Positions 32,534 through 50,848 of a DNA stretch of 55,630 bases are shown here, in pieces. The notes beneath the pieces are model-generated. The model saw nothing but the letters and a program-made list of their open reading frames with translations, had not been told where the DNA came from and searched no databases. The DNA is taken from the IMG/VR virus record IMGVR_UViG_3300025930_000003, positions 1-55,630 of that record. One strand, 5' to 3'. The number at the start of each line of letters is the position of its first letter. The first letter of the stretch is position 1. This DNA comes from a virus. Taxonomy: Duplodnaviria > Caudoviricetes. Both the position numbers and the translations under genes were made by a program.

Positions 32534-34245
32534 TGGTTCCTCATTATAGCGTTTAATGACATATGTGCTCTATTTCTTTTTCTGTGCATTTTTAAAACTT
32601 GACCATTCCAAACAAAAGCTTCTTCTATTTCTTCAGCAGTCATTTTCTTAGAATCATGTTTAGTATCCTTTATCTCTTCTGTAATGAAAGCATCTAGAAG
32701 ATCAGTAACCTTTATATTGGAAAAGGCTAAAACAGCTGCATCAGCTCTATCAGGTGAAGGCAATCCCTCAGAAAGCATTTCTGGCTTACTCTGCAAACAT
32801 AGTTTATCTATTCCAGCAATAGAATCTTTATATTTCCTAGATGCAAGTTGTGAATAAAGTTTCTCATCATCCAGTAGAATTATTACTCCCTCTTCAACAA
32901 GTCTATTAAACTTAGCCCAAATCTCTGCTCCGCGATTACGATATTGCTTTTTGTTCTTAGGCGCAGACTGGTTTAAAACTCGATTGATAGACCATCCTTT
33001 ACGCCTTAAAATATCAATTACTGCGCGGCCAACTCCACCGTCATCTGCATAAATATAGTCATTTACTTTAGGAACTTTTTGTTCTTCGAAAGATTTCTCT
33101 ATAAAATCTGCTAGCAAAGTAGCATCTTTGATGCGGCAAGTAATCTGCTTTGTTTGTCTGTTACCAATAAAGTAACTTATGCAAGTTTCATCTCCATTAG
33201 TAGACAAAGCTATATCAAGACCAATTCTAGGTTGAGTTCCAAACTCTTTAACCAGTTTCAGACGAATCTTAGTGCGAAGCTTTGCTAATCTTTCTGATCC
33301 AATTACATATTTACCGTCGATAAAAGTAAATAAAGCAAGCCACTTAGATCTAAAATAAGGTGAATACTCACCAAGTTCTTTTAAGTCAGCATCAAATTCC
33401 TCACGTGATTGATGTGGACAATCGAAGAAAGTAACTCTCCTCTTATAAGGCCAATCGTTGAAAGCATTATGAAAATCCCCTAAAGGAGCACCAGGAGTGG
33501 AAACATAGATTAAATAGTTGAATCCAGTGCATCGCTTTAAAGCTCTGAAGATTTCTGGTGCGACAGATTTAGCTTCATTTACTATAATGGCCATTTCCGC
33601 GTTAGGCTCTAATGGGTGATAGCCTTCTGCTTTACCCTCTTCGTCAGTTGCAAATAAGATAATTTCTGATCCAGAAAGGTGACATACTATATGTCTTTTA
33701 TTTACTTTGAGAATAGGAGCACCTAGATTCTGTATGGCCCAGTTGTTTATTTTTTCGCAAAGTCCGCTTATGTATGCTTCTGTTTGATTTGTTAATTGAA
33801 CGCCAGAAGAGGAAGTAATAATCATTCTGCTTCTACGTTTCGTTGTAATAAACCAGACAGCAAAAGGTGCGATTACAAAAGCATCTTTTCCAGATCCATT
33901 TGCGGCACATAGACAATATTTGTATGGATGTTTTGAAGAGCATTTAGCTCTAGAAAGCTGCTCTCCAGTCTCTATCTGCCAAGGATGAAGAGTATCAATT
34001 CCTTCGTTAATATTTTTATCAAAGAAAGCCAAGAGTTCTATACAAGTCTCGAATCCATTTAAAGTAGTCCAATCCTCTTGTATTTTAGTTGGAGCCTCAT
34101 CATTGAAATATTCAGGCTTTGGAGTATTTTCTGTCGCGGCCGACTCTTTAATAGGTTCAGCTTTAGAAAAGAACTTTTCAGTAGAGTCTATAATCTTAGA
34201 AGAAGATTTAGATTCTACAAAGAAATCTGGATTATCCAATAACAT
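32530..34245 (-). CDS. terL: Terminase large subunit
   Basis: HPWQ, Walker A AANGSGKD, IIVNEA, STP, nuclease GLDIA/DDGGVG/SPDRADA. Confidence 0.9.
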   Translation of the reverse strand: MLLDNPDFFVESKSSSKIIDSTEKFFSKAEPIKESAATENTPKPEYFNDEAPTKIQEDWTTLNGFETCIELLAFFDKNINEGIDTLHPWQIETGEQLSRAKCSSKHPYKYCLCAANGSGKDAFVIAPFAVWFITTKRRSRMIITSSSGVQLTNQTEAYISGLCEKINNWAIQNLGAPILKVNKRHIVCHLSGSEIILFATDEEGKAEGYHPLEPNAEMAIIVNEAKSVAPEIFRALKRCTGFNYLIYVSTPGAPLGDFHNAFNDWPYKRRVTFFDCPHQSREEFDADLKELGEYSPYFRSKWLALFTFIDGKYVIGSERLAKLRTKIRLKLVKEFGTQPRIGLDIALSTNGDETCISYFIGNRQTKQITCRIKDATLLADFIEKSFEEQKVPKVNDYIYADDGGVGRAVIDILRRKGWSINRVLNQSAPKNKKQYRNRGAEIWAKFNRLVEEGVIILLDDEKLYSQLASRKYKDSIAGIDKLCLQSKPEMLSEGLPSPDRADAAVLAFSNIKVTDLLDAFITEEIKDTKHDSKKMTAEEIEEAFVWNGQVLKMHRKRNRAHMSLNAIMRNQ

Positions 34246-36422: not shown

Positions 36423-36854
36423 TTAGTCAGCTAAATGTTCAATCTCAGCAGGAATATCTATTACTTTAGATTTCCCTTTCTCAATGGCCTTTTTCATATT
36501 CACAAGCTGGTCATTTAGTAAGGTAACATTGACATTTAGATTCTTTACATGTTGAAGATCATGTCGTCCTTTGTTCTCGTTTATGACAAATTTAGCCGCG
36601 CGGAATGCTACGTTTTCGTTTTCAGCAAACACAAGAGAAGTAATTCTCTGCTTTGCCATCTCAAATTCATCTTGTGTGAAAAGAGAAGGATTTTTCTTAA
36701 CTTCGTTTCTGAATTTAACTGAGGAACCCATTAGAACCATTTTAACAGAATGTTCGTCAACAGAAAGAGCCTCAGCAATCTGATCTGGTTGCATATCAGA
36801 TTTGTCGTATAGCTCTTTGATCTGGACGTTTAACATTTCAGGAAGCGGATTCAT
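36423..36854 (-). CDS. Putative terminase small subunit
   Basis: N-terminal HTH (PDQIAEAL), AAKF helix, C-terminal NVNV strand; near the start of the late arm. Confidence 0.55.
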   Translation of the reverse strand: MNPLPEMLNVQIKELYDKSDMQPDQIAEALSVDEHSVKMVLMGSSVKFRNEVKKNPSLFTQDEFEMAKQRITSLVFAENENVAFRAAKFVINENKGRHDLQHVKNLNVNVTLLNDQLVNMKKAIEKGKSKVIDIPAEIEHLAD

Positions 36855-36877: not shown

Positions 36878-37003
36878 TTAATTTTCTTTTATGGTTGGCG
36901 CTACTTTAGTTTCTTCGTCTGATAGAAGTTGATTTAGTTTAGCACGCTTTAATATTTCTAAAGCAGCTTCCGAAAGTTTCTCTGATAAATCAAACATTTT
37001 CAT
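36878..37003 (-). CDS. 41-aa ORF, probably leaderless
   Basis: ATG falls at the predicted +1 of the promoter at 37014-37029. Confidence 0.45.
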   Translation of the reverse strand: MKMFDLSEKLSEAALEILKRAKLNQLLSDEETKVAPTIKEN

Positions 37004-37013
37004 GTTTTACTAG

Positions 37014-37029
37014 AGCAATTTCTATGCCA
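37014..37029 (-). promoter_or_regulatory. Sigma54-type promoter for the late arm
   Basis: Minus strand TGGCATAGAAATTGCT. Confidence 0.8.
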
Positions 37030-37116
37030 AAATATTGAAAGAGTTTAGTATTTGGTTCTAATTATATTGGAGGGTCATTTTGTTTTATAAAATTTATGAG
37101 ATAATCAGGGGCCCCA

Positions 37117-37154
37117 ATTTCGGTCATTTCGGACACGACAGAAATGACTGAAAT
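37117..37154. repeat. 14-bp inverted repeat with 10-nt spacer
   Basis: ATTTCGGTCATTTC / GAAATGACTGAAAT (13 of 14 match). Confidence 0.75.
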
Positions 37155-37158
37155 CTCT

Positions 37159-37352
37159 GTAAGTCGTTGTTCATTAAGGAGTTACGTTGTTGACTAAAAG
37201 GTCAAATTGATTTCTCTTCTGTAAAGCCTTGGTAATGAAGGACTTGTAACTTAGTAAGTGTTTGCTCACTCGCATCTGTCACTCAAATGTATTGCAAATG
37301 CACGATTCCCGATATATTCCTGAAAGTATATCGTTGATTACCAACATGTTAC
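37159..37352. promoter_or_regulatory. Three 27-bp imperfect palindromes GTAA-N4-TTG-N5-CAA-N4-TTAC (IHF-like halves)
   Basis: Copies at 37159-37185, 37221-37247, 37326-37352; half site near 37254. Confidence 0.55.
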
Positions 37353-37356
37353 AGCT

Positions 37357-37372
37357 TGGCATCCCTGGTGCT
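37357..37372 (+). promoter_or_regulatory. Sigma54-type promoter for the first plus-arm gene
   Basis: TGGCATCCCTGGTGCT (GG-N10-GC). Confidence 0.65.
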
Positions 37373-37551
37373 ATATAGGAGTTAGTTCTTTGAAATGCGG
37401 GTTGCGCGAGGTGGCTTTCCACTGGATTGCCTAATCGTGAAATGGGTTGTAGTTTAGGGATGATTTCCCTTGTGCCGTAGTGTGCCTTGTTATAATCAGA
37501 CTCGCTTGTCTGAGCAAGATACTGGCATCGGGGGATATTAGGAGTAAAGTT

Positions 37552-37992
37552 ATGTCAAATACTACAACCGCAGAAGTTGTGAAAGCAGCCGTCAAAGTTG
37601 GCTGGTTTGCTGGTGCATTGTCGGGTTTTCAACGTGTCGTTTTCCGCGATTTGTGTTATGCGGGATTCGATAAGCAGATTGCCCACAAGGTATCAATGGA
37701 CTACGGCAGTCAGCTTGGCAGCGCGATGCGGAATGATGACAACATCAAAACCGCAGTTGGCAAAGCCACAAAAGCTGGTTTGGCCAAAATGTCCGGCGCT
37801 TTTCATGACAAGCTCATCATGCACAATAGCATGGCAGTTTATCGCGTGGTGCAAACCATTAGCGACCTTTATCAAAAGGAAAAACTGTTGAAATCGTACG
37901 AGATCAATCTGGACACCCTGTCTGACAGGTTGCAGGATTATCTCAGCGAGTGCAAAGTGTGGGCATCGGAACAAACTTGGGAAACCAAGTAA
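37552..37992 (+). CDS. First early gene, GC-rich, unknown function
   Basis: AGGAG at 37540 before ATG 37552; own promoter and terminator. Confidence 0.75.
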   Translation: MSNTTTAEVVKAAVKVGWFAGALSGFQRVVFRDLCYAGFDKQIAHKVSMDYGSQLGSAMRNDDNIKTAVGKATKAGLAKMSGAFHDKLIMHNSMAVYRVVQTISDLYQKEKLLKSYEINLDTLSDRLQDYLSECKVWASEQTWETK

Positions 37993-37998
37993 CCCGCC

Positions 37999-38036
37999 AG
38001 TGTGTAGAGATACCCTGTCTCTACACACTCCTTTTT
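37999..38036 (+). terminator. Intrinsic terminator
   Basis: 12-bp stem AGTGTGTAGAGA/TCTCTACACACT plus CCTTTTT. Confidence 0.8.
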
Positions 38037-38345
38037 CAGTCCGTTATTTGAAATCTTATCAATCTGACTTTAGACTCTAAAGAACGAGAGATAAACCTAT
38101 AAAAAGAGCTTAACATATTCCGCACAAGCTAATAGAAAAGATAGCCCACAAGAGTATCAAATCTAGTGCAAAGGAAATGCCTCAAGCGATTATCCCTTAT
38201 AATTAGGAGTATCGCACATAAGAGATTAGGATAGCAACCTAGAATAAATACCAAGAGAATTGCAAAGGATGAAAGGAAAATAAAGTAATCCTGAGCGAAT
38301 CTCTCTTTCAGATATGAAACATTCATGTTTGAATAAGGAGATTCA

Positions 38346-38651
38346 ATGCCATACATAAAATGCGCTAATAAAAAGTGTGATAATCATGCACAACATAAAG
38401 GATTGTGCACTCCATGTTTTAGAGAATCCCAGAATATTAACATTCCAGTCTCTAAACATGAACAGACAAGAAGAGAAAATGCTCGTCTAATGAAGTTCTG
38501 GGATGCGAACAAGAAAGCACCACAATTTGAGCAGATTTCAAAGAGAGCTAGCAAGAAAGGAATAAGCGGATTCCACAAGGGACTATATATGTCTCAAAGA
38601 GGAATAAGCAAGTTTGGTGATCTCCAACAAGATGTGCCTTTTCCTGAATAA
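38346..38651 (+). CDS. Zinc-finger-like early protein
   Basis: C-x4-C...C-x-x-C; AAGGAG RBS. Confidence 0.65.
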   Translation: MPYIKCANKKCDNHAQHKGLCTPCFRESQNINIPVSKHEQTRRENARLMKFWDANKKAPQFEQISKRASKKGISGFHKGLYMSQRGISKFGDLQQDVPFPE

Positions 38652-38661
38652 TTAAAAAGAA

Positions 38662-38677
38662 TGGCATAAAAAATGCT
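38662..38677 (+). promoter_or_regulatory. Sigma54-type promoter
   Basis: TGGCATAAAAAATGCT, intergenic just after a stop codon. Confidence 0.65.
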
Positions 38678-38938
38678 TCAGAAAAGGACGTGGGCAATTC
38701 AATTAACATTCAACTTATTTAACACTATGATTATTCTATTCTTTGTAGCAATACTTTTTTGGTTAGCTCTTGATTATAAGGAGTAAATTTGTTGCTCTTT
38801 ATTTTAATCTTTGTGCCTTCAAATCAACTAGATATGTTTTTTATTATACTTATATATATAATAATATAATAAAATATTAAGGTATTTAGAGAAAGAAAAA
38901 TTCACTCCTTCCAGTATAACTAAGCATTTAAAAACTCT

Positions 38939-39337
38939 ATGTCAATGAAAGAAGTATCGCTAGAAGATATAAAACAAGCGATGAAGCGACGCGAGGCTGA
39001 GCGACTAGCTAATCCTCTTCCTAAACAATTTATTCCTAGACCAGATAAAAAGATCAAAAAGGAGCCATCTCATAACATTTACGACATTGGTCTACAGGCG
39101 TTTATCCGTCTCTATTGCTTTCGTAACGTAGAATGTTTCTCCATTAAACATCTTAAAGTTCTTCCTGACGATGACCTTAACAATCTCTATAAGAGAGTTA
39201 ACTATTGGACCAAATGTGGCTTTATTGAAAAATTTGATGAATCTACCTACGTAGTTACAGAATCAGCCAAAGCGAAACTAGAAGCTATTTTCGATCTTTT
39301 AAACAAACATCAACATGGTAAAGGAATTGAAGAATGA
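38939..39337 (+). CDS. Winged-helix DNA-binding protein
   Basis: GFIEK-x5-Y-x-x-TE-x-A wing motif. Confidence 0.55.
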   Translation: MSMKEVSLEDIKQAMKRREAERLANPLPKQFIPRPDKKIKKEPSHNIYDIGLQAFIRLYCFRNVECFSIKHLKVLPDDDLNNLYKRVNYWTKCGFIEKFDESTYVVTESAKAKLEAIFDLLNKHQHGKGIEE

Positions 39338-39552
39338 AAGAAAAAGAACTTCGCGGAAGAATTGCTAGACTTAAAACTCAAGGTATCACAGGAGAATATG
39401 AAGTGTTTGTTCGCACAAGAAATAAGCTAGGACAAGTAATAATCTCTCGTATCTTTGAAGTCAAATGTGACCACATAAGCAGAGAATTTACCATCGAGAC
39501 AATCGAAACAGAATATAGCAATCTACCAGAAGATGAACTTACAACAAGCTAA
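39334..39552 (+). CDS. Early hypothetical protein
   Basis: Coupled ORF. Confidence 0.6.
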   Translation: MKEKELRGRIARLKTQGITGEYEVFVRTRNKLGQVIISRIFEVKCDHISREFTIETIETEYSNLPEDELTTS

Positions 39553-39775
39553 ATCATTTCTCTCTTCATGCCATAGAATAGTAATTGAAGAAGATGACGG
39601 AAATTTAGATATTTATTGGTGCCGCACAATCAATTTAGGCTATTGCGCACATGGATACTTCAACAATCACACAATAGAACAAGTAGATATTGGAGACAAT
39701 AGATTTTACTTCAATGATGCAAAAGAACTGAAAGATTGCTTCAAAACATCTCAGACACTTACACCAGAAATATGA
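39533..39775 (+). CDS. Early hypothetical protein
   Basis: Overlapping ORF. Confidence 0.6.
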   Translation: MNLQQAKSFLSSCHRIVIEEDDGNLDIYWCRTINLGYCAHGYFNNHTIEQVDIGDNRFYFNDAKELKDCFKTSQTLTPEI

Positions 39776-39999
39776 AAACATTAGATAATCCAAATGAATG
39801 CTACTATCAAGCCGCACAAGAGCTTTATAGAAGAGCACATGAAAGATACGGTGCTACCTATAATTTTGGTGGGCCAGGATACGAAGATAGAATGAAATAT
39901 TGGGAGAACAAAGCATTAGAGTATTTGACTCTATCACATGAATGTCTTAGAGGCAATAAAGAGGCTATATTGAAATTACTCGCTGAACTTGGTTGTTAG
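39772..39999 (+). CDS. Early hypothetical protein
   Basis: ATGA-coupled start. Confidence 0.6.
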   Translation: MKTLDNPNECYYQAAQELYRRAHERYGATYNFGGPGYEDRMKYWENKALEYLTLSHECLRGNKEAILKLLAELGC

Positions 40000-40028
40000 T
40001 CGCACAAGAACTTAACACAACAAACAAT

Positions 40029-40208
40029 ATGAGAAAAATAATTGTTAGCGAAATGAAAGACTTTAGATTCTGCATAGAGTGGTATGAAGATGATGTTTGT
40101 GTTGGCGGAGCATTTAGCACAAAACCAGACTTAATAGAAGAGGATATAAATTTTCTTCTCCATAGAAGTAGACGAGATTACAGAAAACCAGATGAAAACA
40201 TTAAATGA
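40029..40208 (+). CDS. Early hypothetical protein
   Basis: ATG after an A/C-rich leader. Confidence 0.55.
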   Translation: MRKIIVSEMKDFRFCIEWYEDDVCVGGAFSTKPDLIEEDINFLLHRSRRDYRKPDENIK

Positions 40209-40338
40209 TTTTCTCCGCGCATTACTTTTTATCGAACTCGACGCAATTGATAGAGCAATTTCACAGATGAAAAACAAGAAGCGGGCTAAAATGATTAGAA
40301 GAGCATTTAAAAAACAATGGAAATTTAGCCTAAGATAA
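40192..40338 (+). CDS. Small basic early protein (48 aa, not in ORF track)
   Basis: MKTLNDFLRALLF...; fills gap. Confidence 0.45.
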   Translation: MKTLNDFLRALLFIELDAIDRAISQMKNKKRAKMIRRAFKKQWKFSLR

Positions 40339-40378
40339 TTTCCGCACAAATCAATTGTGCGAAAAAGAAAGGAAACAT

Positions 40379-40732
40379 ATGACTGAAAGAAAAATGGCAA
40401 AAGAGATAGCAGATATTCTATCTAACGAACAAGTAACAAAATACGGTGGAACCATTAAGATAACTGGCGCGGAGTCAGTTAAAGAGACCGCACAAGAACT
40501 TTCTTCTCCAACTGTTGAAAAACCACAAGAGCCTAAATATAAGGTTCTTTTCGAATATGACGAACAAGCAGGCAAATGGGAAGTCTATTGTTATGGTGCG
40601 AAAGATGAATATGAAGCACTAGATATGTTTTGTGCGGTTGTTGTTACAGCTAGAAGTGCGATTCCTAGCCAGAACTACAACAAAGCAATCCTAGAGAATG
40701 GCCGATATAAGATAAGTGTAGGTGTTTTATGA
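40379..40732 (+). CDS. Early hypothetical protein
   Basis: AAGGA before ATG 40379. Confidence 0.65.
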   Translation: MTERKMAKEIADILSNEQVTKYGGTIKITGAESVKETAQELSSPTVEKPQEPKYKVLFEYDEQAGKWEVYCYGAKDEYEALDMFCAVVVTARSAIPSQNYNKAILENGRYKISVGVL

Positions 40733-40877
40733 CATTATATGATCTTAAGTTAGAAGAGAAGTATCTTCTAGATAGATTTGTTCGCACAAGTCCGGACAAC
40801 TTAGAAACAATAAATAGAATCTGGAAAAGACTCAGAAAAGTAAAAGAACTAATCGAAGAGAAAATGAAAGTAGCCAA

Positions 40878-41060
40878 ATGAAAACATGGAATCTATCGGA
40901 GAATGGAATCTTAACACTAGAAGAGAATAATGCAGCTATGATTGTGTCTATTGTTCTCTCTAACGAGCAGAAAGCTAAAATACATAAGGAAGTTGATTTA
41001 GCACTAAGAAGAGAGATTGCAAGACAAAGAGAGACATTTAATACTGTCCTTAAACATTGA
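40878..41060 (+). CDS. Early hypothetical protein
   Basis: Packed ORF. Confidence 0.55.
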   Translation: MKTWNLSENGILTLEENNAAMIVSIVLSNEQKAKIHKEVDLALRREIARQRETFNTVLKH

Positions 41061-41072
41061 CCACACAAGAAC

Positions 41073-41285
41073 ATGAAAAAGAAACTACCAATCTATATTG
41101 TTTGGATTCTATTCAATAATAGATATACTTACTTTTCCGCACACTCCTGTTTGAAGGAAGCGACTTCATTCTCAAATAAGTTCCTAAATAGAGATATTCT
41201 ATCTAAAGTTACAGAACATTGGCTAGAACTGGAAAATATTCTTGAGACAACAGATGGAGATTTAATCAAGAATCTAAATCTATGA
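41073..41285 (+). CDS. Early hypothetical protein
   Basis: Packed ORF. Confidence 0.55.
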   Translation: MKKKLPIYIVWILFNNRYTYFSAHSCLKEATSFSNKFLNRDILSKVTEHWLELENILETTDGDLIKNLNL

Positions 41286-41473
41286 AAAAGAAATACATGA
41301 TAGTTATGTTTGATACTGAAACAGGTTTAGTTAAACATCCAGAAGAAATATGGGATAACTATAGACATGTTAGTGCTAGCTTTAAAGACTTATATTCTTC
41401 AGAAGAGTCCGCACTAGAACATGCAACTGAACATGGATTAAGCTATTTCTCTATTATTCCGGTCTACTATTAA
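41282..41473 (+). CDS. Early hypothetical protein
   Basis: ATGA-coupled ORF. Confidence 0.55.
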   Translation: MKKKYMIVMFDTETGLVKHPEEIWDNYRHVSASFKDLYSSEESALEHATEHGLSYFSIIPVYY

Positions 41474-41726
41474 CCGCACAAAGAGACTATTCCGCACAAG
41501 AGCTTTCTTGCACAAAAAGAACAACAAAACAAACATATGAAAAAACATCACGAAGACCTAAAAAGTCTAGTTAAAACTGGACAAATAACAGCAAAAGAAG
41601 CTCTAGATAGATTAATTTCTAGAGCTAAAGATAGCAAACAAGCATCTGAATCAATGACCGCCAGATGGTTAAGAGCTAGAATTTTGACTCACGCAGACAA
41701 CTATAGAACATAGAAAGGAGGTAAAT

Positions 41727-41870
41727 ATGATTCGCCGTATTACATCATTCGGTTATATCTGGTTTAAAGAAGGCAAGCAAGTTGCTTGTCAAGTTGGACA
41801 CAATTGGAATGGAGAGACTCTCTCCATTCAAGAGAAGCGTATTCTTAGGAAACTAGCAAGTAAGAGCTAA
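41727..41870 (+). CDS. 47-aa early protein (not in ORF track)
   Basis: Strong AAGGAGGT RBS; followed by a hairpin. Confidence 0.6.
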   Translation: MIRRITSFGYIWFKEGKQVACQVGHNWNGETLSIQEKRILRKLASKS

Positions 41871-41875
41871 AATGT

Positions 41876-41917
41876 CTGGAGCGGTAACTTCTTACAAACT
41901 ACCGCTTCAGCAATTTT
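41876..41917 (+). terminator. Terminator-like hairpin
   Basis: CTGGAGCGGTA/TACCGCTTCAG then CAATTTT. Confidence 0.5.
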
Positions 41918-41951
41918 AACTCATACCGCACAAGTCAACTATAGAAACATT

Positions 41952-42134
41952 ATGTATAGATTCATTCTTCAATACATTATAGTATCTAGAGAATATGGTT
42001 TCAGACCATATTTTTATGCACTTACTTTCTGTAATAGAATCTCTCTAGAGAATTATAAACAAGATAACACAGTAGCTTTCTATCAATATGATTTAACAGC
42101 GGAAGAGATCGGTCAATTACTAGGAGGAAACTAA
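41952..42134 (+). CDS. Early hypothetical protein
   Basis: 60-aa ORF. Confidence 0.5.
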   Translation: MYRFILQYIIVSREYGFRPYFYALTFCNRISLENYKQDNTVAFYQYDLTAEEIGQLLGGN

Positions 42135-42233
42135 TATGTATAACTTCATTCACAAATATAAAGATCAAGTATTTCTATCTTGGCAAGATGATCTATGGGA
42201 ATGTTGGATTGATGTGCTTTCAGAATGTGGTGA

Positions 42234-42542
42234 ATGGATGACAACAGAAGAAGTAGGACAATACCTTGGAGGAAACTAAAAATGATAAGCAAAGAACTAG
42301 AGATGGCTATAGTTGTTCGCTATAGGGAAATAACACCAAAAGAACAAGCAGAAGAGCTTTTTGACTTCGCACAAAAGCTTACTGAAATAATATCTTCTCA
42401 CGCAACAGAGAAGAAATATTCATCTGCTTCTATGGTTACTTTAATGTATCTTGTTAGCGAAACATTTCATGAACAAGCTAGAGAAAAGATAGAGAAGAAC
42501 GCGGTAGAACTATACAAGAAAATACTAGAAGGAAACAAATGA
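42234..42542 (+). CDS. Early hypothetical protein
   Basis: ORF; true start probably the internal ATG after GGAGG. Confidence 0.55.
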   Translation: MDDNRRSRTIPWRKLKMISKELEMAIVVRYREITPKEQAEELFDFAQKLTEIISSHATEKKYSSASMVTLMYLVSETFHEQAREKIEKNAVELYKKILEGNK

Positions 42543-42769
42543 TAACAGAAGCACATAAACTACAATCCGCACAAATCTTTCTTACTCTTCCAAAAGAGAG
42601 ACAAGATTTAATAGACAACTTCTACAATAAGTTGGGCAAAGAGATACTAGACTTTGTTAGGGAGAACAAGTTAGTAACAGCAGAAATAATTGTTCTTCTA
42701 GATACTTTATCAAGCAAATTTTACGAAGCTCTAGAAGATGATTATAAAGAACATATAAAGAAAAGTTAG
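42539..42769 (+). CDS. Early hypothetical protein
   Basis: ATGA-coupled ORF. Confidence 0.55.
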   Translation: MITEAHKLQSAQIFLTLPKERQDLIDNFYNKLGKEILDFVRENKLVTAEIIVLLDTLSSKFYEALEDDYKEHIKKS

Positions 42770-42788
42770 AGTAAAGATAAAGACCACT

Positions 42789-42804
42789 TGGCACAGTTCT
42801 TGCT
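42789..42804 (+). promoter_or_regulatory. Sigma54 promoter (consensus match)
   Basis: TGGCACAGTTCTTGCT, intergenic. Confidence 0.85.
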
Positions 42805-42958
42805 TACATGGGTCTATCAATTTGCACTTCAAATATTAAAAAGAATGATTTAATTTCCAAAAGGAAAACAGAACCAGTTAAAATTCTCCGCGCGAACATT
42901 TTTAATTGGTTCTGCAACAAAACAAACAAGTAGTTCGCGTAGAAAAGAAAGAAATCCT

Positions 42959-43588
42959 ATGAAGGAATTCGAAGTCAAAGTAAAGAAAGAGATAGAGATA
43001 GAGAAGGAGGTTGACGGTAAGAAAGTTAAGGAGAAAGAGACAGTTGAAACTCCTGTCGCGATTGCGCCTATTAAGGTGCAGAAAGGAAAAGGTAGGGGTT
43101 CAGAATATCTAGCTCCTAAGAACGTCAGCACATTAACATTGAAAGATTTGCTTGCAATGTTTAGTGAAGCAGATCTCGTCAATAAGTTGTTCCGTCCTAA
43201 ATTCAAGCAGTTTTGTGCTACCATCTCGGCGGAAGCCGGGTATGAAGCAGGAAAAAGAACTGCAAGTGATGTGAAAGCGGCTAAAAAGGAAGGAAAAATC
43301 ATCCAAGAATGTGGAATCCAAGATGAGGAGAAATTCTACGACGCATTTAGTCGTATGTTTTCCTCTCTTTCTGCTAGAGGTGAAACTGTTGCTGGATTAA
43401 GCAGACAACAGAATGAACTTCTTGCAGAATTTGGTGATCTGGATGAAAATGCTCCAGACTTCGCAGTTCGTTCTGCTGCGATCTTCAGGGAAATCAAGAA
43501 GATCCGTGAAGCACTTGCTGAAAAGAACACTGAATCAGAAGGTGATGATTCAGAAGAAGAAGGAAAACCAGAAGCGGTTGCTGCTTAA
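42959..43588 (+). CDS. Monocistronic charged protein, unknown function
   Basis: Bracketed by a consensus sigma54 promoter and a terminator; acidic tail. Confidence 0.8.
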   Translation: MKEFEVKVKKEIEIEKEVDGKKVKEKETVETPVAIAPIKVQKGKGRGSEYLAPKNVSTLTLKDLLAMFSEADLVNKLFRPKFKQFCATISAEAGYEAGKRTASDVKAAKKEGKIIQECGIQDEEKFYDAFSRMFSSLSARGETVAGLSRQQNELLAEFGDLDENAPDFAVRSAAIFREIKKIREALAEKNTESEGDDSEEEGKPEAVAA

Positions 43589-43604
43589 ACATCAGCAAAA
43601 CATT

Positions 43605-43641
43605 GAAAGGGAAGTAATTAATTTTACTTCCCTTTCTTTTT
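43605..43641 (+). terminator. Intrinsic terminator
   Basis: 13-bp stem GAAAGGGAAGTAA/TTACTTCCCTTTC plus T run. Confidence 0.85.
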
Positions 43642-43655
43642 CCTTATTTAAATTT

Positions 43656-43838
43656 ATGTGTATAATATTAGATTTAACACAACAAGTAAGTATTAAAGAC
43701 GGATCAGTAGTAGATCAAGTTAATGTGCGAATTGAAGGCAATTTACAAACATTAACTAAAGATCAAATTGATCTTATAGAAGAAAAGTTAGATTGGGCAA
43801 TAGATATATTAGGTTTAAATAATATAAATAAAAGATAA
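43656..43838 (+). CDS. Hypothetical protein
   Basis: Start placed after the terminator. Confidence 0.5.
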   Translation: MCIILDLTQQVSIKDGSVVDQVNVRIEGNLQTLTKDQIDLIEEKLDWAIDILGLNNINKR

Positions 43839-43839
43839 T

Positions 43840-44286
43840 ATGCCGCACAAGAACTCAGAAAGTATTGGAAAATCATTACATTCTGATGGATTACCGCACA
43901 AAGAAATAGAACATAAGGAAATAGATCCAGAAGGTCTAAAACAAGGACTTGGTAGAATAACTAGAGCTAGACCTTTAACCGAAGAAGAGAAAACTTCTCT
44001 AAAGATAAAGAAACAAATTCTAGATATGGGAAAATCTTTTACCCTAAAAAGTAATTCAACTCCTTTTAGTCCAGCACCAGACAAACCAATTGTTGTTATA
44101 AAAGAAATGCAAGACATTACCGCACCAGAAACTGTAGAGATACAGATAAGATCTGATGCTAAAACAATCTGGATAAACATTGACGGAATCTGTAGACTAA
44201 GAGCTTGCCGAATTAAGAACTTAGTCCTAATTGACGAACATTCTAAAAGAACCATAGTATATCCTACAAATGAAACTAGCACTTGA
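43840..44286 (+). CDS. Hypothetical protein
   Basis: 148-aa ORF. Confidence 0.65.
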   Translation: MPHKNSESIGKSLHSDGLPHKEIEHKEIDPEGLKQGLGRITRARPLTEEEKTSLKIKKQILDMGKSFTLKSNSTPFSPAPDKPIVVIKEMQDITAPETVEIQIRSDAKTIWINIDGICRLRACRIKNLVLIDEHSKRTIVYPTNETST

Positions 44287-44617
44287 AAAATTAGAAAAAT
44301 GGGCAGAATCATTACCAGATGACAAGGTAATTGATTTCTTAGATAATAATAATTGTGTTATCTGTCAATTCATAAGAGATACAACAGGAATGGCCGCATC
44401 TGCTAGTGCTACTAATTTCTATGTATATCCTAGTGGTATTTCTCGTGAAGGAGAAGTTATATCTCGAAGAATAGAGCCAGAAATTATTGAAATATTAATT
44501 AAAGCAAGAAATCCTAGTATTGGTGAATATTCAAATGATATAACAAAAGAAAGACTATTAAACGCAATTAGGAAGGTAAAAAATGAATTTACCACAACTA
44601 ACTCTTCCGCTTCTTGA
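44270..44617 (+). CDS. Hypothetical protein
   Basis: Overlapping ORF. Confidence 0.65.
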   Translation: MKLALEKLEKWAESLPDDKVIDFLDNNNCVICQFIRDTTGMAASASATNFYVYPSGISREGEVISRRIEPEIIEILIKARNPSIGEYSNDITKERLLNAIRKVKNEFTTTNSSAS

Positions 44618-45053
44618 TAAGTTTCTCTCACTTAGCATAGGATATAGAGACTATCTAGAAATAGATGATGAGGGAATTCTTAGTCTAGTTTCTATTATTG
44701 ACAACGAAGAGCAACTTTATCATGTAGAAGGAAAGAAAGTCTACAAGAAAAAAGCTTGGCTAAAAGATCTAGATAGACTCGCTCGTTCTAGAAGAGAACA
44801 TGAAGAACTAATGACAATAAAAGATGCCCGCGTTAGAAAATTAAAGGAGCTACAAATTAGACTTTCAGAAGAATTTGGTGTAGATAAGGACAATGAGATA
44901 ATAATTAAGATGGCTCTCAATATAATTAGGCGCGGCAAAGAGAAAACTGCTAATATGTTAGGGGTTGATATAGATAATGTTCCTACTATGCCAAGCAGCT
45001 ACTATATTCTTGACTATCCAACTACTGATGGAACAATGGAGATTAAACTATGA
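44583..45053 (+). CDS. Hypothetical protein
   Basis: Overlapping ORF. Confidence 0.65.
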   Translation: MNLPQLTLPLLDKFLSLSIGYRDYLEIDDEGILSLVSIIDNEEQLYHVEGKKVYKKKAWLKDLDRLARSRREHEELMTIKDARVRKLKELQIRLSEEFGVDKDNEIIIKMALNIIRRGKEKTANMLGVDIDNVPTMPSSYYILDYPTTDGTMEIKL

Positions 45054-45328
45054 AAAGAGATTGCGGAAATGGAGAATTAGTTCCAGTCAAATATGAAGTT
45101 GTCTATTGTGTTGGCGAACATAGCGATGATGAAATTGTGCTAGAACGTAGAACATTTAATGAAGCTAAAGAAGTTTTTCAATCAAAACTTCCAGAGATAC
45201 AAGCTACTCGTTGTAGTAATCTTAGACTATATGCTCTAGATAAACAGGGATATGCTAATTGTATTATATCTTATACACATTGTAAAAATGGAGAAAAAAC
45301 AATAAATGACCGCACAAATGAATTATGA
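45050..45328 (+). CDS. Hypothetical protein
   Basis: ATGA-coupled ORF. Confidence 0.6.
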   Translation: MKRDCGNGELVPVKYEVVYCVGEHSDDEIVLERRTFNEAKEVFQSKLPEIQATRCSNLRLYALDKQGYANCIISYTHCKNGEKTINDRTNEL

Positions 45329-45504
45329 TAGTAAAAATAACAGTAACTGGTAAAATAGTTTCTGACGAACCTATTGAAGCTCAATTAGAACTACCACCTA
45401 ACTGGAATCCAAACATAAAAGAGGTTTTCATAGTTAAAGGAGCAATATCTAGATTAGTAGACGAACTAAGTGAACATTTCCCTAAAATAAGTGGATAGAC
45501 TATT

Positions 45505-47757
45505 ATGTCAAGAAAAGCTAAAGTAAAAGTAATTACTCTAGAAGATGAGATAAAGAAACTTATTCCTTGTCTTAATCAAGCGAAGTCTAGGTTCTCCTTT
45601 CACAAAGAGGAAAGAACCTATGGCTTTCTCGCACTAAACTTTGGTATAACAATAAAAGATCCAGTTTTAAAGAACAGACCAATAGTCTTTGAAGATATCA
45701 ATTTGTTTCATAGTCAGTTAATAGTTAGATTAAAGGATAAATATGACATCAGAAAATACATCGGTGATAGAAAAGTTGAAGTGCTTGAGGGAAGTAGTGA
45801 GCCACAAGGAGAAATGGGGGGAAATATTGGAATTATCCCCAGCGGAGAAAGAAGCGATACTCCAGAAGCACATGACAGCGAGAATGTTAGTAGAGAAGTA
45901 TCTAGGATTGAAAAGAAAGATGAAGAAGTCAAAGAGATTGATAGCTTCACACTTGAAGAAAGAAATAAAGAAACGGAATCGCACTTTGATTCGATATTTG
46001 TTGCTAAGTGGCCAGATCAGAAAGCTAACTTACTGAAGCAAAAAGATGGTTGTGAGCAACTAGAGACTGCCCGCAAACTTTTTAATGAGATCTGGTATAA
46101 TCTTAAACCAGGTTTCTTGTTAAATGCTCAAACTGGAGCAGGAAAAACTTACATAGTCGGTTCCGTAATAAAGAATCTACTAAATCATGGACTATTAGAG
46201 AAGGCTAGATGTATTAGTCCAATACCGATTGCTTACATTACTAAAACTTCTATTGTAGAACAGACAGAGAATGATGTTCTAAAAGAGGCTTTCAATCTAG
46301 ATGTTGTCAACACAGTTCATGTTTTCAACATAGAGACTCTTCGATCTAAGTTTGGTAAGTTGTTCGTAAAGGAACGAATTAACGTAGTCAATGGACAAGA
46401 GACTATAGAATATGAATGGAATCCTAACATTGTTCCATGTCTCTTTATCTGGGACGAATGTCAGATTCTAGCTAGAGAAGAATCTATTCAGTCCAAGATA
46501 GCACAAGCAGTTAGCAGGGTGAAGAATAAAACTATTATTCAAATCTTTATGTCAGCTACTCCATTTTCCCGCGTTTACGAAGCTAGATGTTTCGCTGTAG
46601 CTACTCATACTACATTCTTTTTCGGTATGGGAGAAGTAGAACTTACTGATAGAAACTGGAAACAGTTCTCTCATCAAATTGCTGCGCCATCAGATCCAAT
46701 GGATTATTGTGAAGCAGCTATTAAGAGATTTGTAGAAAAAATGGATCCTTATATTCTACGAATTAAGAACATAAGGCCAAAACATAGAGCCTTCAATGGT
46801 GTAAGCAAGATATTCTTCAGAACAGACGAAGAGAGGCTTGAATATGAGACAGCTTGGGAACGATATCAAAAAGAGAAAGCGAAGATAGAAGAAGAGTCTC
46901 TTAGGACAGGAGAAGGTTCCTATTTCCAGCTTTTAGCACAATTGACTATTATGAGAAAAGCTGCTGAAAAATGCAGACGTTATCATCTAGCAGAATTTAT
47001 GCACAAAAGTTGGTTAGCTGGTAAAGCTCCTGTATGCGTTGTCGCTTTCAAAGGAACAATTACTGGAGCATATAGAATTCTAGTAGAAGATTATGGTTGG
47101 TGCCGCGACGATGTTTCAATCATTTGGGGTGGTTCAGTAGAGTCAATGAATCTGAAGAAGAAAGTAGGATTGAAGATCAAGAACAATAAAGCTTTCCAGG
47201 AAGCAATGAAGGAAGCGGACATTGATTTACAAGAACTTGGTTTCGATCTAGAGAATCTAGAAGTTAAGACAGAAGAGCAGATAGCTTTTGAGAAGCTACA
47301 TAATCTTCTCACACAAGATCCAGAGTCAAGAGAGAAAGAGAGAATAAGATTCCAGAAGCAGAAATCCAGAGGATTATTCTTAACCTTTAAATCTGGTGGA
47401 GTAGGACTTTCTGCACACCATCAATATCCTGAAGCAAAACAGAGAGAAACACTATTAACTCCTGTCTATTCAGAAAAGGAACTTGTTCAAGGTTTAGGAC
47501 GTTGTCCTAGAATTACTTCTTTAACAGACACATATCAATTCATGTGCTACTATGTAGGAACAATTGAGGAAGCGGTTGCACAAAGAGTTGTTATGAAGTT
47601 GAAGAATCTTAAGCATGTAGTTAAGATGAAAGAGGCTTGGGAAGATATATTTACAGGGAAGAAAGTTCAACTCAAGCAAGATGATGAAGAAACTATGGAT
47701 ATGGTAGATGAATTTGAAGGTGGTAACTCAATGCTAGAATATGTGGAGGAAAAATAA
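45505..47757 (+). CDS. Superfamily 2 helicase
   Basis: AQTGAGKT, DECQ, SATP, SGGVGLS, QGLGR-x-x-R. Confidence 0.85.
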   Translation: MSRKAKVKVITLEDEIKKLIPCLNQAKSRFSFHKEERTYGFLALNFGITIKDPVLKNRPIVFEDINLFHSQLIVRLKDKYDIRKYIGDRKVEVLEGSSEPQGEMGGNIGIIPSGERSDTPEAHDSENVSREVSRIEKKDEEVKEIDSFTLEERNKETESHFDSIFVAKWPDQKANLLKQKDGCEQLETARKLFNEIWYNLKPGFLLNAQTGAGKTYIVGSVIKNLLNHGLLEKARCISPIPIAYITKTSIVEQTENDVLKEAFNLDVVNTVHVFNIETLRSKFGKLFVKERINVVNGQETIEYEWNPNIVPCLFIWDECQILAREESIQSKIAQAVSRVKNKTIIQIFMSATPFSRVYEARCFAVATHTTFFFGMGEVELTDRNWKQFSHQIAAPSDPMDYCEAAIKRFVEKMDPYILRIKNIRPKHRAFNGVSKIFFRTDEERLEYETAWERYQKEKAKIEEESLRTGEGSYFQLLAQLTIMRKAAEKCRRYHLAEFMHKSWLAGKAPVCVVAFKGTITGAYRILVEDYGWCRDDVSIIWGGSVESMNLKKKVGLKIKNNKAFQEAMKEADIDLQELGFDLENLEVKTEEQIAFEKLHNLLTQDPESREKERIRFQKQKSRGLFLTFKSGGVGLSAHHQYPEAKQRETLLTPVYSEKELVQGLGRCPRITSLTDTYQFMCYYVGTIEEAVAQRVVMKLKNLKHVVKMKEAWEDIFTGKKVQLKQDDEETMDMVDEFEGGNSMLEYVEEK

Positions 47758-48229
47758 TATGGCAAAAGTATTAGATAATAAAGAAGTTCTTGATAAAATC
47801 TTATCTAGAATTGTTCCACATCTTAATGGATGTTGGATATATCATGGAACTTTTGATGAATATGGTTATGCTAGAATAAGACATAGATATAAATATTGGA
47901 GAGTTTCTAGATTAATATACAAACTAACCTTTCCTAAACTATATAAAGAAGAATTAAATACTTTACATAAATGTGACAATCCAGCATGTGTTAATCCAGA
48001 ACATTTATTTCAAGGAACTCAGGCTGATAATATAGAAGATATGATAAGTAAAGGCAGACATAGTATAGAGGGTAGAGCTAAAGCATTTTTAACTGAAGAC
48101 CAAGTTAGAGAAATCAGAAGTTTAATTAAACAAGGAGTAAAGCAAATAGATATAGCGAAAAGATTTGATGTAACAGACTCAATTATTTCAAATATAAATA
48201 AGAATAGAATTCATAGAAATGTTATATGA
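47741..48229 (+). CDS. HNH endonuclease with C-terminal HTH
   Basis: GCW, HKCDNPACVNPEHL, NIEDM, IAKRF-x-V. Confidence 0.9.
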   Translation: MWRKNNMAKVLDNKEVLDKILSRIVPHLNGCWIYHGTFDEYGYARIRHRYKYWRVSRLIYKLTFPKLYKEELNTLHKCDNPACVNPEHLFQGTQADNIEDMISKGRHSIEGRAKAFLTEDQVREIRSLIKQGVKQIDIAKRFDVTDSIISNINKNRIHRNVI

Positions 48230-49122
48230 TAACTCAATTTCGTCCAATGTTAGCATACGGTCTTTGTGAGGAAGATTTAAAAAGCTTGAAGTTCCCATTG
48301 ATTCTACAACCTAAGCTTGATGGCGTGCGCTGTTGTATTGTAGAAGGTAAAGCACTATCAAGAAAGCTAAAAAGAATTCCTAATAGATATATTAGAACTA
48401 AACTGGAAGCCTTTAAAAATAAACCACCAGTTTTAATAGATGGTGAGTTGGTTATTCAAGGTAAAACATTTAACGAAATACAATCAGCCATAATGAGTGA
48501 GGATGGAGAACCTAACTTTAGATATATAATCTTTGATGCACTTAATGAATGGAGTAATGAATCTTATATACATAGAAAGCAATTTCTAGATTATAGTCTA
48601 GAATACACAAACAACCTATTCTTTGTTAGTGATGTAACTTTAGATCAGTATGAAAAGCTAGATGAGTGGGAACAATATATTCTAAAAGATGGACATGAAG
48701 GTATCATTTTAAGAGATCCTTTCTCACCATATAAGTTCGGTCGTTCCACTCTAAGAGAACAATCACTTCTAAAATTCAAACGCTTTAACGATTCTGAAGC
48801 GGTAATCATTAGCTCTAATGAACTAATGACAAACTCTAACATACTAGAAACTGACGAACTAGGATATGCTAAACGATCTAGTGCCGCAGCTAACTTAATA
48901 AGAACTTGTCAGCTTGGTAGCTGGACTGTGAAAGACATTAACATTAATTCCAGATTCTATAATGTAGAGTTTAACGTAGGAAGTGGATTTACTTTAGAGC
49001 AAAGAATAAAGTTCTGGAATACAAAACAAGATGGGAAAATAATAACCTATAAGTATCAGGCACATGGAAGTAAAGATAAACCTAGGAGTCCAATTTGGTT
49101 AGGGTTTAGAAAGGATATATGA
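48226..49122 (+). CDS. ATP-dependent DNA ligase
   Basis: PMLA, KLDGVR, DGEL, FD, EGIILR, LLK-x-K, VGSGF. Confidence 0.92.
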   Translation: MITQFRPMLAYGLCEEDLKSLKFPLILQPKLDGVRCCIVEGKALSRKLKRIPNRYIRTKLEAFKNKPPVLIDGELVIQGKTFNEIQSAIMSEDGEPNFRYIIFDALNEWSNESYIHRKQFLDYSLEYTNNLFFVSDVTLDQYEKLDEWEQYILKDGHEGIILRDPFSPYKFGRSTLREQSLLKFKRFNDSEAVIISSNELMTNSNILETDELGYAKRSSAAANLIRTCQLGSWTVKDININSRFYNVEFNVGSGFTLEQRIKFWNTKQDGKIITYKYQAHGSKDKPRSPIWLGFRKDI

Positions 49123-49343
49123 GTGAACTAACAACATGCAATTATTGTAATTTAAGGTGGATAAAAGATAGAGCGAAAAAAGAGAAAAAGAAAGTAACAA
49201 AGCTTCCAACTTCTCAAGGACTTGGTGGATTTGAGATCTTTGTTCATCCAAAAGAGATAGATATAAAGAAACTTTCCAAGAAAGAAAGAACTAAATACTT
49301 CAGCTCTTGGATGTGGGAAATAACAGATCATTGTGTTTGCTAA
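49119..49343 (+). CDS. Small Cys-rich protein
   Basis: CNYC and terminal HCVC. Confidence 0.6.
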
Positions 49344-49350
49344 AAATAAT

Positions 49351-50202
49351 ATGATATACGGAAAAGAGAACTACAAGATGAACAATAACAATGCAGAGTT
49401 GCAGAAAAAGCTTCTAAGAGCAGAAGAACTTCTTAGAAATACAGGAAATGATTCCTATATAAGAGAACTTAAAGAGCAACTTGGTAAGTCGAATACAGAA
49501 CAGTGGCTTAGCAAGTTTGTCACAAAGTCCAATTCGATGACGAAATTGAAGGAGCAAGTTAGAAAGCTAACTCCAATAGATGATCCAGTATTAATATTTG
49601 GTGAAACAGGAACAGGAAAAGAACTATTAGCTCATGCACTTCAAGGAGATAGAAAAGGAGCTTTCGTAGCAATTAATTGTGCTGGATTACCTGCACAGCT
49701 AATGGAAAGTGAACTATTTGGTCATGAGAAAGGATCTTTTACTGGAGCGGTAACTGAAAAGATTGGTCTAATGGAGGAAGCACAAAATGGAACTATATTT
49801 CTAGATGAAATAGGTGATCTTGCAATAGAGATGCAAGCGAAACTTCTAAGAGCAATTCAGGAGAAATCCATTAGAAGAGTTGGAGCGAAAGAAGAAATCG
49901 CCATTAATTGTAGAATTGTTTCTGCAACACATAGAAATCTAGAGGAATGGGTAGAAAAAGATAAGTTTAGAGAGGACTTATTCTACCGCATTAGCACTTT
50001 TGTCTTGAAGCCTACACCGCTTAGGACTAGGTCAGCAGATTTACCTCTAATACTCGCCTATCTTGATAGAGATGAATGCGAGATAGAAGATTATAATGAG
50101 TTCGCAAAGAAGATTGATATAGAAAAACTAAAAGGTAATGTTCGTTCGCTTCAGCAAATCTATCGTAGATTTGTAGTTCTTGGACTTGAACCACATGAAT
50201 AA
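49351..50202 (+). CDS. Sigma54-dependent activator (bEBP AAA+ core) lacking sensor and HTH domains
   Basis: [56 protein letters not shown]; ends about 17 aa later; start uncertain (49351 or 49378). Confidence 0.93.
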
Positions 50203-50205
50203 AAT

Positions 50206-50418
50206 ATGATAAGACTAACAATAGAAATAAATTCAAATCCAGGTATAATTCCTGGATATATTAACTGTAAGAAAGAATCAAGGAAAGCTACAATAATAGA
50301 AGAGGATCTTGAATCTAGAATAAAAGATCTTTGTGAAGCTTTTCTAGCTAGATTTGGTGATCCTCTTGAAAAGGCAAAGAATATGGGACTAATAAAGGAA
50401 ACTAAACAAATCAAATGA
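50206..50418 (+). CDS. Hypothetical protein
   Basis: Packed ORF. Confidence 0.55.
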   Translation: MIRLTIEINSNPGIIPGYINCKKESRKATIIEEDLESRIKDLCEAFLARFGDPLEKAKNMGLIKETKQIK

Positions 50419-50609
50419 ATGCACTATTGCTAGGCCCCTATACAACTGGAGACGAAGCATGTTTTGCTTACCATATCTTTATGAACAAGTGTCATAAAGC
50501 TAACTTAGTAATTCCATCAGAACTTAATTTGACAGAAGAGAAGAAGAAAGAGATAGAAGGAAATATAGATAAGCTAATAGAGAAAGAGAAAAGAACGAAA
50601 TGGAACTGA
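50415..50609 (+). CDS. Hypothetical protein
   Basis: ATGA-coupled ORF. Confidence 0.55.
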   Translation: MNALLLGPYTTGDEACFAYHIFMNKCHKANLVIPSELNLTEEKKKEIEGNIDKLIEKEKRTKWN

Positions 50610-50776
50610 TATGACTGACGAAAGATACCACGATATAATGAACAACGATCTAGAGCTAACTCAAGAAGAATTTAATGAAGGATGGCATTTCTGTTTTGAG
50701 TGGGATGGACTACTTCGTAATAACAAGGAAGAAGATTTCAAATGCACCTGTTTAGAGGATAAAAGTTAAAATAGAA

Positions 50777-50792
50777 TGGCATACTTCTTGCT
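50777..50792 (+). promoter_or_regulatory. Sigma54 promoter for the recombination/replication operon
   Basis: TGGCATACTTCTTGCT, intergenic. Confidence 0.85.
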
Positions 50793-50848
50793 TAGTTCCC
50801 ATGTCAATTTGCATTTTTTCTCTTTTAGTATAGTAAAATTATATTCTT

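Follow-up and report, generated by a model that had tools for sequence, protein, structure and literature searches.

The plus strand of the complete genome of an uncultured soil phage, 55,630 bp long (IMG/VR record IMGVR_UViG_3300025930_000003, whose whole length is called the window here) carries 16 exact copies of the word CGCACAA in a single 7.2 kb block of small genes. The array is real and oriented, does not depend on coding and keeps to this block, and it constitutes a very clean lineage-specific oriented word that cannot be explained by chance, codon usage or protein sequence. The labels "early region" and "first-entering DNA", by which the block is known from a first-pass annotation of the window, are plausible as judged from the gene layout. 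As the leading reading we tentatively propose a signal in the early transcripts for coordinated post-transcriptional control, and a serious rival, which the first-pass annotation had not considered and which we also regard as possible though improbable, is a Chi-like word for a host nuclease. The array resembles Chi clusters, stoperators and nuclease sites in early messenger RNA (mRNA), and it shows the full set of features of none of them.

Every plus-strand match to CGCACAA lies inside positions 38121–45317, with starts at 38121, 39412, 39623, 39813, 40001, 40343, 40489, 40783, 41475, 41493, 41927, 42368, 42568, 43844, 43895 and 45311, and four matches are found on the minus strand, at 27683, 40355, 40630 and 51929. 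The orientation is 16:2 within the region (P 0.0013) and 16:4 genome-wide, the array covers 13% of the genome, and the remaining 17 kb of plus-strand genes (45501–55630 plus 1–6831) contain no copy. Dinucleotide shuffles counted on both strands gave a mean of 1.63 and a maximum of 5, none of 100 reaching the observed 20. Under an order-2 Markov model the expectation is 0.69 copies for the region and 1.23 for the entire plus strand; models of order 4–5 come near the observed count only through being fitted on the motif itself. These figures reproduce the earlier counts (16 plus-strand copies all preceded by C or T, none elsewhere on that strand, four in reverse), which had come with a rough estimate of less than one copy by chance.

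The base before the word is C in 12 copies and T in four, YCGCACAA (Y, pyrimidine) having 19 matches against 0.87 expected, and the following base is a purine (R) in 15 of 16, giving the 9-mer YCGCACAAR. The octamer CCGCACAA is the commonest of the 7.5 kb region, in DNA of 34% G+C, and ranks 40 among 26776 genome-wide, where it is first among octamers with at least five G+C. One-mismatch variants inside the region are few relative to the 16 exact copies, five of 11 on the plus strand and none of 16 on the minus strand, indicating that the word is sharp. A position matrix holds information only at -1 to +8 and, weakly, as (A/C)TT(T/A) at +10 to +13, and with a cut-off of 0.75 bits only the weak positions +12 and +17 are added beyond -1 to +7; no second box was found by the matrix within 45 nucleotides (nt) of the word. 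A longer form, CGCACAAGARCTTT, is common to five or six copies. The further k-mers in excess, among them TGACGAA, GATGCGG and CTCCGCG, are spread without pattern.

Ten copies lie in called genes, where they are read in three frames as RT (four), AQ (four) and PHK (two), as had been noticed before. The codon-shuffle check proposed with that observation gave 0.62 ± 0.73 in-gene copies with a maximum of three when the early genes were shuffled among synonymous codons, and none of 1000 shuffles reached the observed ten. Since all three frames are used, codon shuffling removes the word and one strand is strongly preferred, the signal should act at the level of nucleic acid. To that extent the first-pass interpretation stands, whereas none of the three mechanisms that it offered (stoperator-like repressor sites, antitermination or RNA-processing boxes, and protein-loading sites) was confirmed.

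The word is confined to ORFan genes specific to the lineage and to the spacers between them. The searches turned up a single complete relative (G001, 53.7 kb, with 64–69% identity in the helicase and 72% in the terminase), and its genome has no forward and two reverse matches to CGCACAA and, in the matching region, no enriched oriented word of any kind. None of the word-carrying genes has a homologue there by tblastn, and the genes that are common to both phages (starting at 41073, 42808, 42959, 44270 and 44583) contain no copies; shared genes plus the sigma-54 unit described below hold none of the 16 (P ~0.011). The word is likewise absent from a partial relative (L216, terminase 53% identity). 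The first-pass annotation had held that absence in relatives would speak against the signal, and this is what was found in the two relatives (53–72% identity in terminase and helicase); we do not take it as a refutation because the word-carrying genes are themselves missing from the relative, and because lineage-specific arrays are documented, Chi being present in phage LLS and absent from lambda (PMC12315714). In a metagenome strain that is 92–96% identical to the phage (L208), copy 16 is kept at the one comparable site.

With respect to genes, six of the 16 copies are wholly intergenic against 15.5% intergenic DNA in the region (P 0.027), the other ten being within genes; the copy at 40001 is counted as intergenic because its AQ reading needs the call of an open reading frame (ORF) with a TTG start. 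Fifteen copies fall in the interval from -62 to +134 around a start codon, which takes up 62.5% of the region (P 0.006), an interval that was picked after seeing the data. In predicted RNA folds the word has an unpaired probability of 0.61 compared with 0.49 ± 0.22 at 200 random positions (z ~2.2), and thus a somewhat higher accessibility despite its G+C-richness. An Rfam scan of the whole window gave no match.

The individual copies, all on the plus strand and given as 9-mers, are arranged as follows. Copy 1 (CCGCACAAG, 38120–38128) is found in the intergenic leader of the block, 225 nt 5' of gene 38346 and 3' of a strong terminator at 37999–38029, inside the spacer of a sigma-70-like pair TTAACA-17-TAGAAA that was read by eye. 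Two degenerate copies within 100 nt of it were also read by eye, namely GCCCACAAGAG at 38144–38154, which is the word minus its G, and TCGCACATAAGAG at 38212–38224, which is the word plus one T. Copies 2 (TCGCACAAG, 39411–39419, gene 39334–39552) and 3 (CCGCACAAT, 39622–39630, gene 39533–39775) are both in frame RT, copy 3 being the sole one without a following purine, and copy 4 (CCGCACAAG, 39812–39820, gene 39736/39769–39999) is in frame AQ. Three copies directly follow stop codons by 2–5 nt, those at 40001, 40343 and 41475, as previously reported: copy 5 (TCGCACAAG, 40000–40008) begins 2 nt past the stop of the preceding gene and 28 nt before the ATG at 40029, and copy 6 (CCGCACAAA, 40342–40350), also intergenic, is the 5' arm of a hairpin, CGCACAA-ATCAA-TTGTGCG at 40343–40361, with the reverse copy at 40355–40361 as its 3' arm. 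The hairpin had been pointed out before and has a perfect 7-bp stem and a 5-nt loop. Copy 7 (CCGCACAAG, 40488–40496, frame AQ) shares gene 40379–40732 with the other reverse copy of the region, at 40630–40636, where the plus strand reads TTTGTGCGG at 40629–40637. Copy 8 (TCGCACAAG, 40782–40790) is in frame RT of gene 40729–40881. An intergenic cluster at 41475–41516, described earlier as three copies, consists of copy 9 (CCGCACAAA, 41474–41482, 2 nt past a stop), copy 10 (CCGCACAAG, 41492–41500, 44 nt before the ATG at 41537) and, following these, the variant TTGCACAAA at 41508–41516; the variant noted at 41061 is CCACACAAG (41061–41069), which has one mismatch and is among the five variants of the region. 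Copy 11 (CCGCACAAG, 41926–41934) is intergenic, 25 nt before the ATG at 41952, and copies 12 (TCGCACAAA, 42367–42375, gene 42234–42542) and 13 (CCGCACAAA, 42567–42575, gene 42539–42769) are in frame AQ. Gene 43840–44286 has two copies in frame PHK, copy 14 (CCGCACAAG, 43843–43851) immediately 3' of its ATG at 43840 and copy 15 (CCGCACAAA, 43894–43902), and copy 16 (CCGCACAAA, 45310–45318) is located at the end of gene 45050–45328, 14 nt before the ATG at 45325.

We tentatively suggest that the word is a strand-specific cis signal on the transcripts of the lineage-specific early ORFans, where it would be read as single-stranded RNA. A sequence-specific factor should then recognize 5'-YCGCACAAR-3' toward the 5' part of each cistron, and might be an endoribonuclease, an RNA-binding protein or a short complementary RNA, the terminal G and U of which would accept Y and R through wobble pairing. 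Such a factor would control the whole early set jointly, the simplest form being shut-off or destabilization once sigma-54 dependent middle and late transcription begins. RNA as the recognized form, shut-off as the effect and the nature of the reader are inferences. In favour of the proposal, the sense strand alone of the ORFan genes is loaded with the word (16:2 in the region), and degeneracy limited to Y and R together with sharpness is what is expected for base pairing or for a sequence-specific ribonuclease (RNase). Recognition on RNA is, if still doubtful, the best fit to the restriction to one gene class, the 5' bias, the accessibility, the sharpness and the Y and R ends taken together. 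RegB of phage T4, which cuts GGAG in early mRNAs, is the closest parallel known to us; in both cases a short word in early transcripts would allow a phage factor to inactivate the early class as a set, but the T4 word is a 4-mer in Shine-Dalgarno regions, and here nine exact bases are found both within coding sequence and ahead of it.

Several observations weigh against this proposal. Among 20 early proteins scanned no significant Pfam family was found, nor any PHROGs family for the ten of them compared, and no RNase was recognized in these scans. No phage-encoded non-coding RNA was found to have the exact complement of the word, the four complements being in genes or in the hairpin. The signals of position and accessibility are modest and post hoc, and transcript coverage consists of assembled RNA contigs over 42879–43556 only, run X17 having given nothing; parts without coverage are not taken as meaningful. 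We know of no phage system in which an exact 9-mer is used in this way, and a reading at the level of DNA explains every feature equally well except for start-codon proximity and accessibility.

The shut-off proposed above would be tied to an unusual expression programme. The phage encodes a sigma-54 activator (49333–50202, plus strand; PF00158, E 5.9e-63) with an AAA+ core, a GSFTGA loop and a short helical N-terminus, and with no C-terminal helix-turn-helix (HTH) or other DNA-binding domain; the relative has an activator of 66% identity which likewise is without a DNA-binding domain. The matching PHROGs family, phrog_7998, has no function assigned, and no paper on phage-encoded sigma-54 activators was among the full-text search matches listed. 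The consensus TGGCAC-N5-TTGC is present in both phages, in the window as an exact site at 42789–42803 (plus) and with one mismatch at 50777–50791 (plus), 37015–37029 (minus), which heads the late or packaging operon, and 28139–28153 (minus). The relative has four exact sites on the plus strand and two with one mismatch on the minus strand, where shuffles expect 0.26, and its plus-strand sites are located at 3675, 4785, 7086 and 14803 of contig L009. The activator and the consensus sites in both phages imply that middle and late genes are transcribed through the host sigma-54. The unit that starts at 42789 and ends with a strong terminator at 43605–43636 has no copy of the word, and this unit and the 17 kb of co-oriented genes without copies indicate that the word marks the ORFan class and not the direction of transcription.

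The word is not itself a promoter, since there is no second box and sigma-70-type sites are not in excess (31 found, 33.6 expected). It has no partner element at any fixed spacing and, as read by eye, no fixed -10-like box downstream, several copies are located 3' of the start codon that they would serve, and it is without the GG and GC elements of sigma-54 promoters, the consensus sites of which lie elsewhere. Promoter motif arrays of the sigma-70, sigma-54 and phage RNA polymerase types, with the MotA box of T4 as one comparison, are similarly repeated, co-oriented with genes and abundant in early regions, but here there is no partner hexamer, no sigma-54 GG/GC and no phage RNA polymerase was seen. 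The 2449-amino acid (aa) protein as a virion RNA polymerase was also rejected, being repeat-rich, with no Pfam or PDB match and nothing in support. A binding site for the activator does not agree with its missing C-terminal HTH or with the 66% identical activator of the relative that has no word, and a DNA uptake sequence would be expected in both orientations genome-wide, in contrast to the 16:2 found in a single 7.2 kb block. The promoter box TAnnTTTG occurs five times in 37–46 kb with no association to the word. There is a single TTTG ... TAAATTTG pair at 38758–38791, upstream of gene 38939, which resembles promoters of the Bacteroidota type. Shine-Dalgarno-like motifs precede 15 of 71 crudely called genes compared with 9% of random positions, which hints that the host makes little use of such sequences and, with the TTTG pair, gives a weak hint about its identity.

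Known Chi words are G+T-rich, and so is the complement of the present word, 5'-YTTGTGCGR-3' on the minus strand, which might, at a likelihood that we consider low but appreciable, be the recognition word of a RecBCD/AddAB-type helicase-nuclease of the host. The copies would then be stacked in one orientation beside a DNA end exposed in packaging or entry, and the nuclease would there stop degrading and start recombination. An exact, lineage-specific word that ranks first in its region with a 16:2 orientation is in agreement with this, as is its opportunistic-looking placement, with all frames used, six of 16 copies in the 15.5% that is intergenic and none in conserved genes. The array begins beside the divergent region heading the operon with the large terminase (32530–34245), the first sizeable gene of which encodes a conserved HTH protein with Atlas leads that include Terminase_5 in 40% of one cluster, and if cos or pac were located at ~37–38 kb the word would have the active orientation for entry there, although this geometry is derived and not a result. 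There is precedent for clustered sites in a single orientation in LLS and MD8: according to Zheng et al. 2025 (PMC12315714), LLS carries 23 Chi sites with a 20:3 orientation, half of which fall in the terminal 22% of its genome, the orientation in MD8 is 32:0, and Chi is the top octamer in LLS, MD8 and P1, with lambda having none. The same source describes Chi-rich lambdoid phages as mostly being without a Rec module, with exceptions noted, whereas the phage in the window owns a Sak4-like annealase and an exonuclease, two genes that the word-less relative has as well. The clusters of LLS, MD8 and P1, as described there, thus resemble the present array in an exact, locally top-ranked octamer, strong orientation bias, local concentration, use of all frames and absence from relatives, but differ from it in that all copies here are found in 13% of the genome, tighter than in LLS, in the defined Y and R flanks, and in the annealase and exonuclease. 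Among 705 sampled genomes (401 Gammaproteobacteria, 301 Bacteroidota and three others, a small sample which leaves out Bacillota and most other phyla) none combined a high density of the word with a strong excess over a control of the same composition. The best cases were 137 against 31 in 3.9 Mb and 22 against 2, and the strands of the best genome were near balance (15:8, 3:8 and 8:10 in contigs C3, C4 and C5). A G+C-rich 9-mer would also be sparse in a host of low G+C, and recognition of this kind gives no reason to expect the copies to favour the 5' part of genes.

A stoperator-like roadblock, in which a monomeric DNA-binding protein of the phage would bind the duplex word, both at the early promoter and at numerous sites further downstream, and block initiation and elongation in an orientation-dependent manner to switch off the early genes, is unlikely, even if the word follows transcription with 16 of 16 copies on the sense strand of plus-strand genes, the first copy is inside the sigma-70-like -35/-10 spacer of the leader with two degenerate copies within 100 nt of it (by eye), and close pairs exist at 41475/41493 and 43844/43895. 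L5-type phages have more than 20 asymmetric 13-mers whose orientation is correlated with transcription (PMC9283540), and the stoperators of cluster A mycobacteriophages, bound by L5 gp71, are likewise numerous asymmetric copies following transcription with one at the early promoter region; they are, however, genome-wide 13-mers, mostly in short intergenic spaces, in temperate phages with a known repressor. In the window the site is a 9-mer with almost no degeneracy, limited to 13% of the genome, and ten of the 16 copies are within coding sequence, so that the stoperator option of the first-pass annotation fails on two defining features. Scans of a subset of the ORFs brought up nothing like a repressor or an integrase, and the HTH protein at 36423–36854 is 62% identical in the word-less relative. 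It is quite improbable that the word is the core of small regulatory cassettes travelling with ORFan genes and marking module swaps, for which the promoter-stem-loop cassettes in hyperplastic regions of T4-type phages give a comparison. The word does occur only in DNA that is not shared with the relative (P ~0.011), five to six copies share the longer CGCACAAGARCTTT, and the metagenome strain is without the 177-nt gene that follows copy 16, with the junction 9 nt past the word, and has in place of the gene for the HNH endonuclease a segment of 258 nt (L208 2880–3138) that brings its own TCGCACAAT. This is, however, a single junction beside a copy and also a gene boundary with microhomology, a deletion whose flanks have diverged is the better interpretation of the variant junction 41509/41725 (run X11), homologous exchange needs more than nine bases, there is no word-linked recombinase, and many copies are in the middle of genes. 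Iterons, as in P4 with its dispersed octamers, would serve to load a protein of replication, for instance the 750-aa helicase encoded next to the array or the DUF3987 primase-helicase. This we consider very improbable. The word is an exact octamer and the array stops 190 nt before the helicase gene, with a DUF3987 protein present, but the relative has the same helicase (64–69%) and replication genes with no enriched oriented word in the matching region, and 16 sites over 7.2 kb are too dispersed for an origin. Pairing of the mRNA with ribosomal RNA (rRNA) was rejected, since neither a 9-of-9 complement nor a site common to both could be found in the 16S and 23S rRNA of two test genomes, neither of which is the host. 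The commonest form, CCGCACAAG (six of 16 copies), is identical in sense to a segment of 16S rRNA at approximately position 920–934, as seen in two test genomes of different phyla (L218, position 926; L219, position 920), and to our knowledge this segment is universal; by our estimate, identity of some 9-mer with rRNA arises by chance with a probability of ~0.02–0.1. That the early mRNAs mimic rRNA, with the 16 copies on abundant early transcripts as a sponge or decoy for a factor recognizing this stretch, is the least probable of the readings, and the target may in that case be a ribosome-directed defence RNase of the host or a factor of assembly or modification.

The record has a 99-nt terminal repeat that matches an assembler overlap in size, and its ends are therefore not taken as the physical genome ends. 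Plus-strand genes extend from ~38.3 kb across the end of the record as far as 6.8 kb, beginning with ~25 small ORFs and followed by a superfamily 2 (SF2) helicase of 750 aa starting at 45505, the HNH endonuclease at 47741–48229, 3' of the helicase, a ligase, the sigma-54 activator, the exonuclease (52391–53350) and the Sak4-like annealase (53356–54135; phrog_124, E 1.3e-18); genes for a HIRAN protein, the DUF3987 primase-helicase and ThyX are also in this block. The DNA polymerase is found in two plus-strand ORFs, 788–2266 and 3347–4411, with a gap of ~1.1 kb holding five small ORFs. Packaging and structural genes, including the large terminase, occupy the minus strand from 37.0 to 7.0 kb, the last gene of this late operon (7040–14389) encoding the 2449-aa protein, which has hydrophobic Gly/Ala-rich ends and numerous short repeats (YSEEEGxLPK, ESEESPLDK), shows no match in Pfam or to PDB sequences, and may be an ejected internal protein. 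The HNH gene, missing in the metagenome strain, behaves as a free-standing mobile gene. Between the two divergent blocks there is a G+C-rich insert (37030–38030) in the 35% G+C genome, with ~500 nt of non-coding DNA that contains a GGGGCCCC palindrome and an 11-of-12 inverted repeat, and with a gene at 37552–37992 that has an extended -10-like promoter, a 146-aa all-helical product and a terminator with a 14-bp stem. This product has four metagenomic homologues only and folds poorly, with a predicted local distance difference test (pLDDT) score of 52. The insert is not present in the examined part of the relative, and 36973–37652 is highly variable between strains (in run X2, 699 nt contain 55 differing letters and 25 gaps).

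Contigs of the phage were found in ~20 rhizosphere or soil studies. Queries with the helicase and terminase, alone and as alignments, gave only the complete relative, the partial one and short metagenome pieces, and a search of phage databases gave neither a DNA match nor a close relative in culture. In the partial relative, AACCTCGCA occurs at three places within 0.8 kb, at 72, 569 and 818 on the minus strand, which is its early-gene strand; one copy abuts a start codon, YCGCA is shared with the word in the window, and the contig ends there. The triple is not significant once corrected for multiple testing. A GAGGCTA word in another contig (L217, 13:0) was rejected as ribosome-binding-site context, that contig sharing a single domain with the phage. 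Pairs of the word 5–35 nt apart were found at no fewer than 117 loci in other viruses; the word was counted in each of these 117, and the nine inspected were mostly short coding repeats; five non-tandem candidates had whole-record word counts of 4:1, 5:5, 2:7, 1:5 and 2:3. Triples 175–205 nt apart occur at 71 loci in other viruses, none resembling the window, and the five low-G+C ones inspected were coding repeats of 27–93 nt or scattered copies.

Arrays of short oriented words in phages have each pointed to a distinct mechanism, namely Chi, stoperators and phage promoters, and the present array is unusually clean and belongs to a phage that has no cultured relatives and an unusual sigma-54-based expression programme. 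Should the early mRNAs act as an rRNA decoy, ribosomes would be protected or a factor redirected early in infection. A Chi-like word would for the first time give access to the recombination hotspot of an uncultured rhizosphere host and to the identity of that host, and would carry the strategy of LLS and MD8 past the lambdoid phages to a phage with its own annealase. Recognition on RNA would give the phage a simple means of retiring all of its early genes by way of a single word.

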